This document shows, piece by piece, positions 4,331 to 14,039 of a stretch of DNA of 64,000 nt (position 1 is the stretch's first letter; every line of letters starts with the position of its first letter). The translations under genes were made by a program, and so were the position numbers. This DNA is from a bacterium (lineage in GTDB: Bacteria > Hinthialibacterota > Hinthialibacteria > Hinthialibacterales > Hinthialibacteraceae): assembly GCA_963662285.2 (NCBI GenBank), contig CAXXMV010000006.1, positions 832,001 through 896,000 on the forward strand. The letters run 5' to 3'. Under the pieces are notes generated by a model that was given only the letters and a program-made list of their open reading frames with translations, ran no database searches and was not told where the DNA came from.

Positions 4331-4460
4331 TTGTAACGTATTAATAAAGTGAATATTATTTCGCAGTTTATAATGGGATTTCCGATTGCAATGTTGTTTT
4401 TTTGAACTGGTTATTTCACCTTTGTTTCCACACCTCAATTCCATCTTTATAAGAAAGAAA

Positions 4461-7400
4461 ATGCAAATGAATATTTCAAAAACCATTAAATGTGCGGCGC
4501 CTAGAATTGGAATTTACGTTGTATCTAGTTTTTTGGTATTAGGTTTCTTATTTTTCTTTTCATTTTCCAATCCGTCATTTGTTTATGCGGAAATGGAAAT
4601 ACAGGAATTGAATTTGTTCATCGCCAGCGATGAGGTTTTGACTGAACCATTACCGGTTACTCAGAATAAACCTATTCTTCGATCCCGAATGGTGATGCTC
4701 AATACTGACTTGCTTAAGGAAGTATGTAAAGAAGACCAAATCCCGATCTTTTTTAACCTCTTCACTGATGTTGCGCTCGAGGGGATTGTTAATGATAAAG
4801 TGATCCGTTCAGCCAGGAATTATACGTTGTTTGGATCTATTGATGATGATCCTAATAGTTATTTTGCAATCACCATGCATGAAGGAATTGTTTCCGGAGG
4901 GATTAGAACTGGAGACAATCAACATTATGAAATCGATTACGCGGGCGGTTCTCTTTATCAGCTCTGTGAAATCGATGAAGCGGAATATTCCAAACAATTA
5001 AGCATTCAAGACGTTCAATCACACCAGAAATTAAAGCAACGAGAATTATCCCAGGCGAAAGTACTTTCTCAAGCAAATAGTGATGAAGGAAACTTAGATA
5101 TTGCCAGTGATGAAGGAAGCACCGTCGATATTATGATAATGTACACGCCTCTCGCCCGAAGCAAAGCGGGTAGCGACGAAGCTATGGGCGCCGCGATTGA
5201 CCGGGCAATTGATGAAATGAATTTGTGTTTCAAAAACAGCGCTATCTCTACCCGGTTGCGTTTGGTCCATTATATGGAAATCCCGTTTACTGAACATCGT
5301 GATATCGACGGAAATTGGGAAGATCATGATGACCGGTGGATGATGGAAAATTCAATTGAGACTATTTTATATCGTGACCAATACAAGGCTGATCTTGTCT
5401 GTTTTTTTACGCAAGGGATAGGATCGGGAGTGCGAAATTGGCCATTTTCACTTGTGGGCTGGCATTCGGCAACTAGTGGAGGTTTCTTGTTTGCGCATGA
5501 AGTCGGCCATAATTTCGGGGGGCATCACGCAGTTGGCGATTCAGGGAATGGATCATGTCCGGGACTAGACCGGACGGATGGTGGAACATGCCCCTCTTAT
5601 GGGCATGGGTGGAACATATATGTGGGCGGACAGCGCTATACCACTGTAATGGCGTATCACCAAACCATGTGTAATCAACCTGGAACAGGTATTAAAATTC
5701 CTTACTATTCTAACCCGAACGTGATGTATAAAGGCGCCCCGACAGGTAATCCTATAGGACATCCAGACGAATCATTTGTTGCGAAAGTTATTGAAGACAA
5801 TTCTTATAATATGGTGAAATGGAAGGATTCGATTCCCAATCCCGGCGCCCCGCAAAATGTTCAGGCCACCAATGGTACGGATGATAAAGTTACAATTACG
5901 TGGAATCCGGTTGCGGATGCAACTCATTATCGCGTTTATATGGTGGAGAGTTTGACTGATATTCCCGAAGCCATCAGTCCATGGCAGGAAGCATTACGGT
6001 TTGAATATCAGGATATGGAATCGAATAAACCGTTCTATTTTTATGTCAAAGCGGCCAAAAGCCCGGTGGGGACGATTCCCAGTGATTTCAGCGCCCCGCC
6101 AGTTCAAGGAAAGCGCATATTAGCCTCGCCCCAAGAATTAAATGCCACTGATGGAGATTATTCGGATTCGGTTATCATTAATTGGAAGGCCTCGCCATAC
6201 GCCACGCATTACCGGCTCTATCGCTCGACTCAACAAGATGGAATTAAAGAACCGATAACAGATTGGATCAGGAGGCTGAGTTTTATAGATTGGGATGTGG
6301 AACCACATCAGCCCTATTATTATTGGGTGCAATCAGCCCTAGATGAAGAAGGTAATTTTGCCAGCCGTTACAGCGATGAAGAAAGTGGCTGGGCGACAAT
6401 AGCGCTTTCATCAGTAAGCGCGACGGATGGAGATTATTCAGACCGGATCAAAATAACCTGGAACAAAGTTAAAGGCGCATCCTATTATCAATTATATCGC
6501 GCTGAAAGCGAAGATGGCGCCAAGAATCCCATCAGTGAATGGCAACAAGGGAATACTTTTGATGACTTATCAGCCGCGCCCGGAAAACAATATTATTATT
6601 GGGTAAGCGCATCTAATAATAGTTCCGGATTTGATGCAACCGGATATAGCACCCCTAATACCGGTTGGAGGAATTTTGCAAAGCCATCCGGAATTAAGGT
6701 CAGTGAGGGAACCTATCCCGATAAAGTTGTTATCTCATGGAATGCCGTTCCAGGTAATCCCGCATACCGGATTTATATGTCAGAAAATTCAACTGGAGCG
6801 ATGGATGTCATAGAGTCCGGATGGATGGAAGGTACTGAATATGAGTATTCTGGCTCTATGCCTGCTGGTTATACATTTTATTTCGCTGTATCCGCTGTTA
6901 CCGATAAAAATGCAACCAGTGAAAGCGAGTTAAGCAACCGGGCATCCGGGTGGAGATATGTACCTCCACCTACCAATGTACAAGCAAGCGATGGCGCTTA
7001 TACAGACCAGATTCATATAACATGGAACGCAGCGTCAAGCGGTTCGATCTATTACAAACTTTTCCGGGCTGATAAAGCCAATGGAACGAAATATGCAATT
7101 ACCTCCTGGATTAGTAACCGTTACTATTTTGACCGTGGTCTTGATCCAAGCGAAAGTTATTATTATTACGTGAAAGCGGCGATTGATTCCAGTGGAACCC
7201 GCGCCAGCGACTATAGCCGGGGCAACGGCGGATCAACAGGACTTACGCCGCCAGAAAATGTCAATGCTACAAAAGGTACGGATACAAGCAAAGTCGCAAT
7301 TTCCTGGACCAGACTTTCCGGCACGCATTATTACCGTGTTTACCGGGCGGATGATATTGATGGAGAACGTACGCCTATAAACGACTGGACAGCGCAAATC

Positions 7401-10394
7401 TTACGATATGAAGATTTAAATGTCCGGGCGGGAGATATCCATTACTATTGGGTTAAAGTGGCGGCCAATAGAAATGGTCTCAATGAGAGTGCATTTAGCG
7501 AAATGAGCGTTGGATATAGGTATCTTCCCCCTCCTGAAAATATACAGGCTTCCGTTGGAGTTTACGAAGGTCTTGTAATTATTACTTGGGATGAACTTCC
7601 CGAAGCGACTCATTATATGGTGTTTCGTACTGATGAGCCTAATGGAAGCCGTAAAAGCATATCCGGCTGGCAAACAGAAACCACATTCAGAGACAAAGAT
7701 ACCATCCCGGGCCATACGTATTATTACACCGTAAAAGCAGCTGGCAGTGAAACCGGCGCCGGATTAAGCAGCCATAGCCAAAGCAATGGTGGATTCAGCC
7801 GGATGCCTCCTCCAGACCCAATAATGGCTTCTGATGGAACTTACGCCGATAAAATTCGGATTTCCTGGCAGAGTGTGGAAAACGCGCAATATTTCCAAGT
7901 TTTCCGAACGGAAGATCCAGATAACAATGAATTGAACCCCTTAAACGAATTCGAGAGAATCACAAGGTTTGACGATATGACGGCGGAACCAGGAAAGATT
8001 TATTATTACTCCGTTGCCGGCGCCAGAAGTCAAAGTGGCTATGGTGATACAAATATCAGTCAATCAAATTCTGGTTTCATATCTCCAACCGTTCCACAAC
8101 GGCCGGTAGTCAGCAATTCGGAGTATGGAGACAAAATTGTAGTCAGCTGGCCTGCAATCGCTGAAGGCGTCTATTACCGCGTCTACCGCAAAGATTCTCC
8201 TAGTGGAGAATTGGCGGCAATTGGAAACTGGCAGTTAGAAACATTGTATGAAGATACAGAAGTATTGGCTGGACCGACATACTATTACGCAATCCAGGCG
8301 GGGAGCAATGAAAACGGAGATCGTCCCAGCGATATCGGCGTAGCTTATGGAGGTTCCCGCAAGATGCCGCCGCCCTCCAATTTATATGTCGCGCATGGCG
8401 CTGATCCCAATGAAATCCTGATTACGTGGCAGAAAGTGGAGAATGCGGTTTATTACCAACTGTTCCGGTCAGACTCGTTGGAGGCGGAAAAAATTCCGGT
8501 TACTGGATGGCAGCGAGGAACTATTTTCAGAGATCAAAATGTTGAACCATTGAAAATCTATTATTACTGGGTGAAGGCATCGCGTAGTTTTTCCGGATAT
8601 AAAGATACTGATCTGACCGCGCCAGAAGAAGGCTGGCTGCAACCACCCGCTCCAACCAATGTGGTTGTCTCCAATGGAGAACATCTTGATAAAGTTAATG
8701 TGCAGTGGGATTCCACAGTCACCAATGGCTTCTATAGCGTTTCCCGGTCAGAAGCGATTGATGGAGAGAAGATGCTGTTAGGAAATTGGAAACCAACCTT
8801 ATCGTTTGATGATAAAGAAGCAGTCCCTGGAAAAACCTATTATTATTGGGTGCAAACTTCCTTGCGTGAGGATGGAGATGGTCCCAGTGACTTCAGTGAT
8901 CCGGTTACAGGTTGGAAAAAGATGCCCGCTCCTGAAATTCCATCGCAACCCAACCCTGCGAATAATAGCCATGACATCGATGTTTCTGTAAATCTGGATT
9001 GGAATGATAGCCAATGGGCGGAACGTTATTATGTGCAGTTATGGGAAAGCACGGAAACAGAAGGCGCCCTCAGAATTTTCTCTCAATTACCTGATGATCC
9101 AACTTTCAATTATCTAACCGAAAGTATAGTGATAATGCCTTATGATCTTAAATATGACACAGAATATTCATGGCAGGTGACCGCAGAAAACCAGAGTGAA
9201 ATAATCAAAGGACCGGTTTGGTCATTTACGACGATATCCAAAATCGATCCAACTGCTACTAATACGCCGGTATCCGCTAATATGCCGACGGCGACCAATA
9301 CGCCAGTGGCGACCAACACGCCAACCGCAACCTATACGCCAAATAATCTACCGACGCTTTATCCAAAACCCACGAATACTCCAGCTGATATTCCCACGGT
9401 CTATCCCAGACCAACGGATACGCCGACGCCAACGTTAACTCCTACTATTGCTGATCCAACCAGCACTCCGGTTCTGCAGAATCCTACGCCAACGCCTATC
9501 TCCTCAGATGAGATCATCGAACTGCTGGTTAATTCACCAGAGCCTTATCTTGGCCATATTTCATCGGTGAGCGGCGCTGATGAAGATGGAGATGAAGATT
9601 GGTATCAATTCCGTCCCTATACGACCGGCATTCATATTATTGAAACGCATCCGGTTTCCGGCCAGGATTCAATGCACACGATCCTTTATCTATACGGTCC
9701 CAATGACCGGACCAGTTTGATCTCGTTTGACTATACAAGCGGTTATGGCGCGTTTTCCAGAATATCCCATGTTTTAGATGAAGGCCAAACCTATTACATC
9801 ATGGTGATCGAAGAGGGCCGGGATGCTACAGGACATTATGCAATTGACGTGATCACCAGTATAGATATCCCTACACCCGTTCCTGTGGAACCGTCTCCTA
9901 CACCGAATTTAACAGGCGATTGCGTGGAGGCCAGTGATTTTTATATTTCAGAGGCTACAGGATTGTTGCAGGTGAATTTAGGTTCTGTAGAAATAACGGG
10001 AGCAATGATGGCGGATGGAAATCAAACGCCATTGCATATAATCCCGTCCGATGAGCCGGAACGCCTGCATATCGAAATCCCGTGGTCGGAACCACCAATG
10101 GAGCCTGCCACGATTCTATTTTCTATTGATACCTGTGGAGGCAATGCGCCTCAACAGGTTCACTTGTACTTGCATTATGAAAAACCGATTCGGATTTCAA
10201 CTCTGAATGATTTAATGATTGTTGCTTCTACAGAGGAGTATTCTCCACCAGAATCTGGTCAAATACAGCCCATTATTCTCAAAGATCCCGCCGGGATTCG
10301 TTTGATAAAATTGGAAAACTCAAAAATCATTATCCAAAAAATCTGTTGGCAATGCCAAGCCGAAACCGGTGTCGAAATGTGGAGTAATTATTAA
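4461..10394 (+). CDS. Large secreted M12/reprolysin-like zinc metalloprotease with FN3 array, Pro/Thr linker and PPC-like domain
   Basis: Signal-like N-terminus ending VYA; [11 protein letters not shown] zinc motif and TTVMAY Met-turn; 11 tandem ~95-aa FN3-like repeats plus one variant; PTATNTP linker; start chosen at ATG 4461. Confidence 0.85.
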
Positions 10395-11116: not shown

Positions 11117-11141
11117 TAACCCCTTGGATTCCAAGGGGTTA
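11117..11141 (-). terminator. Hairpin terminator after tRNA-Ala
   Basis: TAACCCCTTGG/CCAAGGGGTTA followed by a T run on the minus strand. Confidence 0.75.
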
Positions 11142-11151
11142 GGATTTTCGT

Positions 11152-11224
11152 TGGAGCTGAGGAGGATCGAACTCCTGACCTCCTGACTGCCAGTCAGGCG
11201 CTCTCCCAGCTGAGCTACAGCCCC
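11152..11224 (-). tRNA. tRNA-Ala(GGC), CCA not encoded
   Basis: Minus strand GGGGCTGTAGCTCAGCTGGGAGAGCG-CCTGA-CTGGCAG-TCAGG...GTTCGATCC...CAGCTCCA; G3:U70 pair. Confidence 0.96.
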
Positions 11225-11483: not shown

Positions 11484-12017
11484 ATGAAAAAGCAAGCCTT
11501 TACTCTTATTGAATTGCTCATCGTCGTGGCCATCATTGGAATCCTGGCTGCCATTGCCGTCCCTAATTTTTTGAATGCCCAGATTAGAGCCAAGATCGGG
11601 CGGGTTGAATCGGAATTCTCAACTATACGGACCGCATTTGAAATGTACCGCATGGATCAAGGCGGCAAATTACCCGATGCATGGGCGGTTGGATGGTATG
11701 GCGCATGGAAATCTTTTACTACTCCGATCTCTTATCTGCCAACCGTGCCTATCGATATATTTCAACCTAAACAAAAAGATCAATTTGTTAATGAGCATAA
11801 TTTTTATGAATTCGTTGAAGCCTATAAAGCTAAGACGGGTACCAACAAGGATTGGGCGCTGGCCAGTTTGGGGCCGGATCATCAAGATGATACCCTATCA
11901 TTCGGCGCTTATCCTAACTCCAATAAATGGGTCTCATATTCAACCTCAAACGGCCTGATCAGCGATGGCGACCTGCTTTTTGAAACCCATCCGGGCTTGA
12001 ATCCCGTCACATGGTAA
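11484..12017 (+). CDS. GspG-like prepilin/pseudopilin (orphan)
   Basis: QA|FTLIELLIVVAIIGILAAIAVPNF type III signal with E5; SLGPD motif near the C-terminus. Confidence 0.88.
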   Translation: MKKQAFTLIELLIVVAIIGILAAIAVPNFLNAQIRAKIGRVESEFSTIRTAFEMYRMDQGGKLPDAWAVGWYGAWKSFTTPISYLPTVPIDIFQPKQKDQFVNEHNFYEFVEAYKAKTGTNKDWALASLGPDHQDDTLSFGAYPNSNKWVSYSTSNGLISDGDLLFETHPGLNPVTW

Positions 12018-12031
12018 ACCAGTGAAAATGA

Positions 12032-12066
12032 AAAATGTAGAATCTTCTTATTGGATTCTTCATTTT
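12032..12066 (+). terminator. Imperfect hairpin after pilin gene
   Basis: AAAATGTAGAATC...GATTCTTCATTTT. Confidence 0.45.
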
Positions 12067-12180
12067 TCTTGTTATAATTATTTATAAGGGATTACGCTTT
12101 CTGATCTACCAATACGAATGTCGAACTGATGACTGTTTAATTACAGCGTTATTTTGACATCAGTGTTTTCTGCTTTGGGC

Positions 12181-12290
12181 AAAAAAAATGCGGAGTCATA
12201 AGCTGGGCAGCCAGACTCCGCTTGAGCAGAATAATGGGAGGTAGGTATAGGGAGGGTAGTCCCTATTGTATTTTATGTTCTTTCTTATCT
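12181..12290 (-). ncRNA. Candidate small RNA with C-rich anti-SD motifs
   Basis: Hairpin ATAGGGA-CTACCC-TCCCTAT, single-stranded ACCTACCTCCC, terminator GCGGAGTC/GACTCCGC + T8; no ORF; 5' end approximate. Confidence 0.55.
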
Positions 12291-12505
12291 ATACTATGCG
12301 TTCATCACAGGAAAAGTTATCTGGTACTAATATCATGTGGTCGTACTAAATAAACGAATTAAATCCTTATTGTGTAACGTACGCATTTTATAGTTTTTAC
12401 TTTTTGATTTATCCCTCGCTTTAATACAGGTTCTCTTATTTCATTCAAGTTATCTATCGTAAAAAAATAAATCTAAACTAATTTATATTATCATTCTACT
12501 ATATA

Positions 12506-12532
12506 TACGAATGCTAGAGCCAATTTGTTTCA
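12506..12532 (-). promoter_or_regulatory. ECF-sigma-like promoter
   Basis: TGAAAC-N17-CGTA on minus strand. Confidence 0.5.
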
Positions 12533-12612
12533 TTTTTTGTTAATTATTTTATCCCTCATTGGATGTTCTGAATAATTAGCAACAAGCACCAAATTTTAGA
12601 TTCATTATATAA

Positions 12613-12638
12613 GACGATTAGAAGAAGGATTTTGTTCA
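12613..12638 (-). promoter_or_regulatory. ECF-sigma-like promoter
   Basis: TGAAC-N17-CGTC on minus strand. Confidence 0.5.
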
Positions 12639-12668
12639 AAAAAATTCAACAATTCATAAAAATTTTTT

Positions 12669-12780
12669 TTCTATCAACTGTTAAAAACTCAAAAAGTAAA
12701 TTCTATCAAATGTTAACAACTCAAAAAGTAAATTCTATCAACTGTTAACAACTCAAAATATAAATTCTATCAACTGTTAA
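12669..12780. repeat. 32-bp tandem repeat, 3.5 copies
   Basis: Unit TTCTATCAACTGTTAACAACTCAAAAAGTAAA starting at 12669, 12701, 12733, 12765. Confidence 0.92.
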
Positions 12781-12791
12781 GATGATCATGA

Positions 12792-14039
12792 TTAAACGCG
12801 CTCAAGTTGTGTATTATCAGTAGTTTTGTTGCGTCGCAAAATGGAGAATCGGCTGAGGGGATTATCGCCTTCAATAGTAATATGGACGCTGGTTCCCGGA
12901 TGCGCTTTTTTGACGTAATGGTTCTGTTTATCCAGGATCGAACCGATGGTAACAAAACCGCCCTTGGATTGCGGTCCGATCCATTCCAGTTTTTCTCCCA
13001 CATCAAACGGATGCTTGACTTGCACTAAAGTCGAATCGTCATTGATCGATTCAATAATACCTACGTAATCCTTAGTACCAATATCTACATAAGAGGCTTG
13101 TAATGCTGCAGGATTCTCGGTGGGATACCCGAACGCGAAACCGGTGGCGTAGGGGTGGTGGCGCACAGAATTTACGTCATCAAGCCAATCCTGCTTCAGC
13201 GTGTAGTTGTCAGGGTCTGCGGCGTAGGCGTCCAGAGCGGCGCGGTAGGATCGTGTTATGGAGGCGATGTAATATTCGCTTTTCATCCGTCCTTCGACTT
13301 TGAGCGAAGCTACCCCGCTTTGCACCAGGGCGGGGATATGTTCCAACAAACACAGGTCGGTTGAACTGAAAATGATGGTCTTGTTATCCGCTTCAACTAC
13401 CGGATACGATTCGCCGGGACGTTTCGCCTCTTTAACTTCCCATTGCCAATGACATGAGTGTTTACACTGGCCTTTTGAAGCGTTAAAGCCAGTCATATAA
13501 GCCGACAGCAGGCAACGGCCTGATACTGCCACGCACATGGCGCCATGCACGAAAATCTCCACCGGTAATGTATCCTGTTCCGTTATCTGTCTGGTCTCAG
13601 CCAAAGAGCATTCACGGGCCAGGATAATCCGTTGAGCGCCTGCATCTTTCCAGAACTGCGCTGCCAGCGCGTTGGCCGTGCTCATCTGGGTTGAGATATG
13701 GATTTCCACATCAGGGCGCAGCTGCCTGGTCAGCATAAATGTAGCCGGATCAGCCACGATCAAAGCGTCGAATGCAATATCCCTGGTCTCCTCCAGCCAT
13801 TGCTTTAGCGCAGGCAGTTCGCTTTGCATTATCAGCGAGTTAACTCCAACATACAGCCGCTTGCCATATTGATGGGTAAGCGCAACGCTACTGCGCAGTT
13901 GATCTATAGAGAACGAAGCGCCATCAGGACGCATCGAAAAACCCGCCGCTCCGACATAGACCGCATCCGCCCCGTATTCCAAAGCCACATGCAGTTTTTG
14001 TTCAGTTCCGGCGGGAATTAAAAGTTCCGGGATAATCAT
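12792..14039 (-). CDS. U32 family protein (TrhP/YegQ-like tRNA hydroxylation)
   Basis: PELLIPAG, GADAVYVG, HGAMCVAVSGRCLLS...CKHSC Fe-S Cys motif, SLKVEGRMKS. Confidence 0.9.
   Translation of the reverse strand: MIIPELLIPAGTEQKLHVALEYGADAVYVGAAGFSMRPDGASFSIDQLRSSVALTHQYGKRLYVGVNSLIMQSELPALKQWLEETRDIAFDALIVADPATFMLTRQLRPDVEIHISTQMSTANALAAQFWKDAGAQRIILARECSLAETRQITEQDTLPVEIFVHGAMCVAVSGRCLLSAYMTGFNASKGQCKHSCHWQWEVKEAKRPGESYPVVEADNKTIIFSSTDLCLLEHIPALVQSGVASLKVEGRMKSEYYIASITRSYRAALDAYAADPDNYTLKQDWLDDVNSVRHHPYATGFAFGYPTENPAALQASYVDIGTKDYVGIIESINDDSTLVQVKHPFDVGEKLEWIGPQSKGGFVTIGSILDKQNHYVKKAHPGTSVHITIEGDNPLSRFSILRRNKTTDNTQLERV

Follow-up and report, generated by a model that had tools for sequence, protein, structure and literature searches.

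Between a prepilin-type gene on the plus strand (11484-12017; Pfam N_methyl, E = 4.9e-8) and a U32 peptidase gene on the minus strand lies a gap of 774 bp (12018-12791), which holds the element described here. The window, the whole stretch of 64,000 nucleotides that was analyzed (G000:C6:832001-896000), belongs to a genome of 7.29 Mb in 8 contigs, which we call G000, and all features of the element are read on the minus strand of the window; the prepilin-type gene is its convergent neighbor, and the U32 peptidase gene is the nearest upstream gene on the same strand, ~530 nt away. Because that gene ends at 12792, the terminator that closes the element follows no gene, as the original prediction had stated. 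The same prediction had placed a GC-richer island in an AT-rich, ORF-free gap of ~770 bp, and this picture is accurate: GC is 0.44 at 12150-12299 versus 0.19-0.31 in most of the remaining gap, and there is no minus-strand ORF of at least 30 aa in 12018-12791. Elsewhere in the gap, at 12669-12780, just past the stop codon of the U32 peptidase gene and before the promoter-like motif P1 described below, sits a tandem repeat of 3.5 copies of a 32-bp unit (93% matches), which is unique in the genome, is found at neither of the corresponding loci of the relatives G005 and G017, and could be a protein-binding array. The wider neighborhood includes a 2,002-aa ORF (4386-10394, plus strand) whose product has a signal-like N-terminus, a region with HExxH and numerous repeats of a module of ~95 aa, and a tRNA gene followed by an 11-bp palindromic hairpin that is terminator-like on both strands (11117-11141 and 11152-11224, minus strand).

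The module proper occupies 12266-12181 and is read 5' to 3' as hairpin, single strand and terminator. The 5' hairpin (12266-12247) pairs AUAGGGA with UCCCUAU over 7 bp around the loop CUACCC, and its 3' arm holds the first of two CCUCC motifs. Directly 3' of it comes ACCUACCUCCC (12246-12236), the first part of a 25-nt C-rich stretch, ACCUACCUCCCAUUAUUCUGCUCAA (12246-12222), which is predicted to be unpaired and is our candidate seed. The two CCUCC motifs fall within 12256-12250 and within 12242-12236 (the second at 12240-12236). The terminator (12221-12181) is built from an 8-bp outer stem, with arms GCGGAGUC (12221-12214) and GACUCCGC (12197-12190), a 4-bp inner stem and the loop GCCC, and its 3' arm is followed by an A and then U8 (12188-12181); it thus has the form of an intrinsic terminator, a G+C-rich stem-loop and then a U-tract on the transcribed strand. 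Every piece of this arrangement in the original prediction, the hairpin, the C-rich stretch, the two CCUCC motifs and the strong terminator with its U8, is present in the minus-strand sequence. RNAfold predicts both hairpins, the 5' one in the minimum free energy (MFE) and the centroid structure alike, and leaves 12246-12222 unpaired in the centroid; consensus folding of an alignment likewise leaves the seed unpaired. Folding by itself is just modestly unusual, since the energy of a 156-nt stretch (-32.3 kcal/mol, z = -2.0) was equaled by 6 of 200 shuffles; it is by conservation, and not by fold energy, that the module stands above chance.

When the whole 774-bp gap was compared by BLAST with 40 relatives, the only strongly matching part was a segment of 77 nt, 12257-12181, with copies of 92% identity in G005 and 91% identity in G017, which represent two other genera of the same family. 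A 36-nt core, ACCCUCCCUAUACCUACCUCCCAUUAUUCUGCUCAA (12257-12222), is invariant in the three genera, with 36 of 36 columns identical in G000, G005 and G017. Mean column identity over the alignment, A1, is 62%, and the surrounding intergenic DNA is barely alignable; G000 and G005 share 78% identity in the adjacent prepilin-type protein, whose ortholog in G005 and in G017 is likewise encoded convergently with the module. The original prediction had named a lack of conservation in relatives as a reason to abandon it, and on this point it survives, given 91-92% identity in two genera and the matches in 12 of 35 genomes described below. Within G000 the module is single-copy by BLAST and by both of our covariance models, and we rejected a repeat or mobile element on these grounds.

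Sequence changes in the terminator stem largely respect pairing. Among the three genera, the base of the stem varies as G-C, G-U and A-U, and pairs inside it as U-A/U-G and G-U/G-C. Where these pairs are G-U, the plus strand would carry A-C mismatches, which indicates that the constraint acts on the minus-strand RNA. In an alignment of nine homologs, outer-stem positions are paired in 72 of 72 cells and all stem positions in 97.9%, whereas sliding the partner by 1-3 columns as a control lowers pairing to 31-46%; pair 1 occurs as G-C/G-U/A-U and pair 7 as U-A/U-G/C-G, and 3 of the 12 stem pairs vary on both sides, via G-U intermediates. The covariation score was equaled by 23 of 500 shuffles, and five of the eight outer pairs never vary, so the support from covariation is moderate.

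A first covariance model, R1, built from the three copies, gave weaker matches in other genera of the family, which we judged to be homologous because they share synteny and layout. In G005, G014, G013, G019 and G006, one and the same membrane-protein gene precedes the module by a few hundred nucleotides, with both on one strand; the shared layout consists of CCUCCC or CUCCCC 14-20 nt before the terminator and of GCGGAG in the terminator 5' arm. A second model, R2, built from nine sequences and applied at E <= 0.01, matched 12 of 35 genomes of the class, all of them in family f1 (11 of 19 relatives, together with G000), and none of the 15 genomes of the other five families. There is one copy per genome, bar a dubious second match in G004 (L104), which has no C-rich motif and is treated as a false positive for that reason. 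A run of at least six U residues follows the stem at every credible homologous locus (12 genome loci and the metagenome contig L034). The 5' hairpin is more variable: 8 of 13 loci have a predicted hairpin just 5' of the C-rich stretch, with unrelated sequences, and it is weak in G005 (4 bp) and missing from the MFE structure of G017. In metagenomes, four contigs match the terminator pattern, all of the genus-g7 type, and a scan with the exact 23-nt core pattern returned no matches.

The element had been presented as an unannotated, structured, C-rich RNA, and the Rfam scans agree. With Rfam 15, whose families include RsaE, 6C and other C-rich sRNAs, two tRNAs alone pass the gathering score in the whole window; a permissive search of 11950-12850 gives no overlap with 12181-12266 at E <= 10; and at 11 homologous loci there is nothing at the module at E <= 0.5. 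The sub-threshold matches of the permissive search fall outside the module or on the opposite strand, among them BjrC1505 at 12073-12156 on the plus strand, which scores 21 bits against a gathering score of 50. Another locus, L027:2377-2425 (plus strand) in G013, gave a sub-threshold match to Acido-Lenti-1 RNA (24.9 bits, E = 0.093; gathering score 37), which is not at the module. Judged from these comparisons, the module is a conserved RNA element that is restricted to one family of an uncultured lineage and belongs to no Rfam family.

The three-genus alignment contains further conserved blocks ~300-460 nt upstream of the module, which follow a common pattern: a T-run, TGAAAC, a 16-17-nt spacer, CGTA and an A/T-rich stretch. 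In passages of one source, Bacillus subtilis sigma-W promoters have TGAAAC as their -35 and CGTA as their -10 element, and the spacers of ECF promoters measure 14-17 bp (PMC5758882); the upstream pattern is a motif match to an ECF-type promoter. The better of two such motifs in the window, P2, reads TGAAAC-N17-CGTA (12532-12506, minus strand), resembles a sigma-W-like ECF promoter of presumptive activity, and would give rise to a primary transcript of ~315-320 nt with its 3' end at 12181. The weaker P1, TGAACA-N16-CGTC (12638-12613, minus strand), is preceded by a T-run and may be an ECF-like promoter as well; its counterparts are TGAACG-N16-CGTC in G005 and TGAATA-N16-CGTT in G017. The putative primary transcript would consist largely of a poorly conserved, AT-rich body (12505-12267, minus strand) with no conserved ORF and with weak structure, its consensus over a 342-column alignment reaching just -20 kcal/mol. 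No conserved promoter lies directly beside the 5' hairpin. A transcript of ~110 nt, as originally proposed, finds no support in this arrangement, in which the sole conserved promoter-like element stands ~320 nt upstream.

A scan of ~600 nt upstream of the module finds the strict motif, TGAAA[CT]-N16-17-CGTA, in 8 of the 12 genomes (G000, G017, G014, G013, G019, G006, G011 and G009), at distances of 300-540 nt, as well as in the metagenome contig L034; across the whole genome of the window it occurs 80 times, or 0.0055 per kb per strand. The other 4 of 12 lack it or have a degenerate form, with looser variants in G005 and G002 and no motif upstream of the module in G004 and G015. The genome has genes for at least 32 ECF-type sigma domains, and none of these 32 candidates has a clear autoregulatory copy of the motif before its gene. 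From the motif, transcription of the module would be expected to depend on an ECF sigma factor. A loose genome-wide motif scan gave mainly noise. Further instances of a T-run with TGAA-N16-17-CGTA occur in the window at ~32794 on the plus strand (G000:C6:864794) and elsewhere in the genome at C1:708291 (plus strand) and at C2:1209706, C4:122897 and C6:136477 (all minus strand); several precede, by 66-175 nt, genes whose products have signal-peptide-like N-termini, and the motif at C1:708291 has no called gene within 2.9 kb. It is possible that these sites mark members of the same ECF regulon or, in some cases, another orphan RNA.

The relatives place the module in a different light. In 7 of the 12 genomes (G014, G013, G002, G004, G011, G015 and G009), a conserved ORF of ~62 aa separates the promoter motif from the module, which is then its 3' UTR and shares its terminator with a protein-coding mRNA; the window does not have this arrangement. 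The small ORF (L021:1282-1464, L027:1236-1424, L022:1304-1489, L101:1633-1821 on the minus strand, L102:1275-1466 and L103:1264-1452) has its own Shine-Dalgarno (SD) sequence and encodes a protein with a basic N-terminus and a conserved C-terminus containing FLENRGCP and IRW, for which Pfam, NCBIfam and PDB sequences offer no family; the genomes that carry it have the C-rich motif CCUCCCCA. The remaining 5 of 12 loci, those of G000, G005, G017, G019 and G006, are without the ORF. At the window locus, tblastn with the relatives' small protein found nothing at E <= 10, and a small ORF there was rejected on that ground and because the short ORFs of the three genera are unrelated. G000 does carry a homolog of the small gene ~270 kb away (C6:1166805-1166996, or L105:506-697 on the minus strand), with TGAAAC-N16-CGTA ~290 nt upstream and a CCUCC locked in a hairpin in its 3' region. 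The upstream neighbor of the module in G005 is also that in the ORF-bearing G014 and G013, so that the ORF-less loci have presumably lost the ORF and kept the promoter and the 3' module. The free-standing gene of 110 nt that had been envisaged is better described as a 3'-end module, given that the module is a 3' UTR in seven related genomes.

What such a module might do depends on what its C-rich stretch can meet. The 16S rRNA of the genome ends in GGAUCACCUCCUUUCU, with the anti-SD sequence CCUCC. GGAG stands before 37% of predicted starts versus 4% internally, and GGAGG before 9.8% versus 0.7%, an excess of SD motifs that is overstated because the choice of starts itself favored them; with this reservation, the reported complementarity of CCUCC to the GGAGG ribosome-binding sites in use here stands. 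An Hfq gene is present in the genome (84.1 bits, above the cut-off), and the anatomy of the base-pairing sRNA class is thereby assembled: an unpaired conserved seed, a U-tailed terminator hairpin and an Hfq gene. The scans for targets were less telling. Over 5,150 predicted start regions, duplex energies showed no excess relative to composition-matched shuffles: 309 genes fell below -20 kcal/mol with the real core, 190-331 with five shuffles and 403 with the reversed core. An exact k-mer scan likewise revealed no obvious regulon. The original claim of trans action on SD regions thus draws no support from duplex scans, which did no better than shuffled controls.

One group of genes did emerge from the exact matches. 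A complement of at least 9 nt near the start is found in 66 genes, of which 10 are prepilin-type as against 111 of 5,149 overall (Fisher p ~1e-6, a value to be read in the knowledge that the family was picked after the list had been viewed and that its paralogs are not independent), and none of 30 shuffles reached 10, the maximum being 5. The signal is driven by ribosome-binding sites resembling AAUGGGAGGU, and it was not replicated when the 9-mer was tested in the relatives (in G005 none of 11 non-self sites precedes a prepilin-type gene, and in G017 1 of 20 does), so that an enrichment of prepilin-type targets is at best weakly suggested by the sequence matches. The prepilin-type family is itself a very large paralogous one, with ~111 predicted G000 genes carrying the N-terminal motif FTLIELL.... 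The neighboring prepilin gene was considered as a target and discarded, its 5' region having no conserved complementarity to the core.

The best reading of 12266-12181 (minus strand), in our view, is that it forms the conserved and functional 3' module of a gene for a non-coding RNA, which we infer to be transcribed. Since the lineage of the window lacks the ORF at this locus but keeps the promoter motif and the module, the locus there would be a stand-alone sRNA of the 3'-UTR type. We posit that the ECF-type promoter at 12532-12506 gives a primary transcript of ~320 nt, perhaps with later trimming to the 3' module; that the C-rich seed, unpaired and with a CCUCCC anti-SD-like motif, would pair with G-rich ribosome-binding regions of other mRNAs, probably together with Hfq, and lower their translation; and that the sRNA could in this way serve as a non-coding arm of an ECF sigma response. 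Transcription, processing, pairing in trans and the choice of targets are here all read from sequence features. For the explanation as a whole, a 3'-end-type sRNA behind an ECF-type promoter whose C-rich seed acts on G-rich ribosome-binding regions, we would put the chances a little short of even.

The principal alternative is that the module acts in cis and no more than that, as a terminator joined to a stabilizing or autoregulatory 3' UTR (e.g., of the icaR type), and that the copy in the window is a relic devoid of trans function. Its position as the 3' UTR of the small ORF in 7 of 12 genomes is what such an element would predict, as is the hairpin-locked CCUCC in the 3' region of the small-gene paralog of G000, and passages of the icaR study (PMC3868564) describe a C-rich 3'-UTR motif that pairs with its own SD sequence. 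Yet cis pairing of the module with its own start region proved unremarkable at 6 of 6 ORF-bearing loci, where it was no better than background and 15-64% of background regions do at least as well, and the module is kept in the ORF-less window, in G005, in G017 and in the g7 genomes, with 36 nt invariant across three genera, which is unlike a relic. We regard an exclusively cis-acting role as unlikely, if worth serious consideration.

The preferred reading, a trans-acting 3'-end-type sRNA, can be extended into an evolutionary account, in which a stand-alone sRNA was born from an mRNA 3' UTR. The ancestor would have been an ECF-driven mRNA for the ~62-aa protein with an anti-SD seed in its 3' UTR; the ORF would have been lost from this locus in 5 of the 12 genomes, with promoter motif and 3' module retained, a two-motif, invariant seed of 36 nt would have been elaborated in three of those genera, and the product would serve as a non-coding arm of an envelope-stress response, throttling part of the prepilin-type family. 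Taken with all of its parts, this account is speculative, and we think it rather improbable.

An RNA of similar build could instead serve as a decoy or sponge, its C-rich stretch being bound by the basic ~62-aa protein or by a ribosomal component. An invariant stretch of 36 nt is longer than a typical 7-12-nt seed needs, the scans produced no convincing mRNA targets, and the gene linked to the module encodes, in 7 of 12 genomes, a small basic protein that falls in no known family, all of which would suit a protein ligand; against this, no repeated protein-binding motif is evident, the succession of hairpin, single strand and U-tailed terminator is the architecture of a base-pairing sRNA, and in the genome of the window the small protein is encoded elsewhere, so that we find protein binding improbable. 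Least probable of all, to the point that we give it little credence, is a terminator shared by convergent genes and kept to end the plus-strand prepilin-type gene, or a site that acts at the DNA level: the module is indeed convergent with the orthologous prepilin-type gene in three genera, and the end of its U-run lies 15 nt from the prepilin stop in G005 and 43 nt in G017, but in the window that distance is 163 nt, the other 9 genomes have a different downstream gene, the plus strand has UUGAGCAG and no U-tract after the stem, the G-U pairs of the stem would become A-C mismatches there, and the invariant C-rich stretch would be left unexplained.

If the module is merely a 3'-end element, it is an ordinary finding; the interest would be greater if both the passage from a 3' UTR to a stand-alone sRNA and a regulon of envelope proteins hold true. 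The candidate is defined by a covariance model with 12 genomic instances and comes with a putative ECF promoter and a small protein gene linked to it, and it opens posttranscriptional control in this group to transcriptome and reporter tests; a full-text literature search of limited scope found no published regulatory RNA for Omnitrophota. The ORF-bearing and ORF-less versions of one locus, moreover, form a natural series in which to follow how 3' UTRs become independent sRNAs.

Among known systems, the module is akin to C-rich anti-SD sRNAs and to ECF-dependent or 3'-UTR-derived sRNAs, yet it fits no described family. RsaE/RoxS of Firmicutes are, in the passages drawn on here, C-rich sRNAs that pair with SD regions (PMC6158497, PMC8216469). 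The module shares with them, as far as those passages describe them, exposed C-rich motifs complementary to G-rich ribosome-binding sites and an end at an intrinsic terminator, and differs in matching no Rfam model, in belonging to another lineage and in having a putative promoter of the ECF type. RsaE/RoxS carry their C-runs in loops, whereas the CCUCCC of the module lies in a linear stretch between two hairpins. The 3' UTR of Staphylococcus aureus icaR, in the portion of the report considered here (PMC3868564), is a precedent for a C-rich anti-SD-like motif in a bacterial 3' UTR; unlike icaR, the module pairs with its own start no better than background at 6 of 6 loci, and the window locus is without an ORF. 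MicA, RybB and MicL, and FoxI/FoxJ of Fusobacterium, are described in parts of two reports as ECF/sigma-E-dependent sRNAs of envelope stress (PMC1851643, PMC11005410). Resemblance to what is described there extends to the ECF-type promoter motif, the Hfq gene and the U-tailed terminator, with envelope (prepilin-type) mRNA targets as a weak hint; the sequences are unrelated, ECF dependence of the module is presumed from the motif, and its targets are candidates. CpxQ, finally, is a 3'-UTR-derived sRNA from the cpxP mRNA. In much the same manner, the module in 7 of 12 genomes uses the terminator of a small protein gene that is apparently driven by a stress promoter, whereas at the window locus the parental ORF is gone and the putative transcript would be wholly non-coding.
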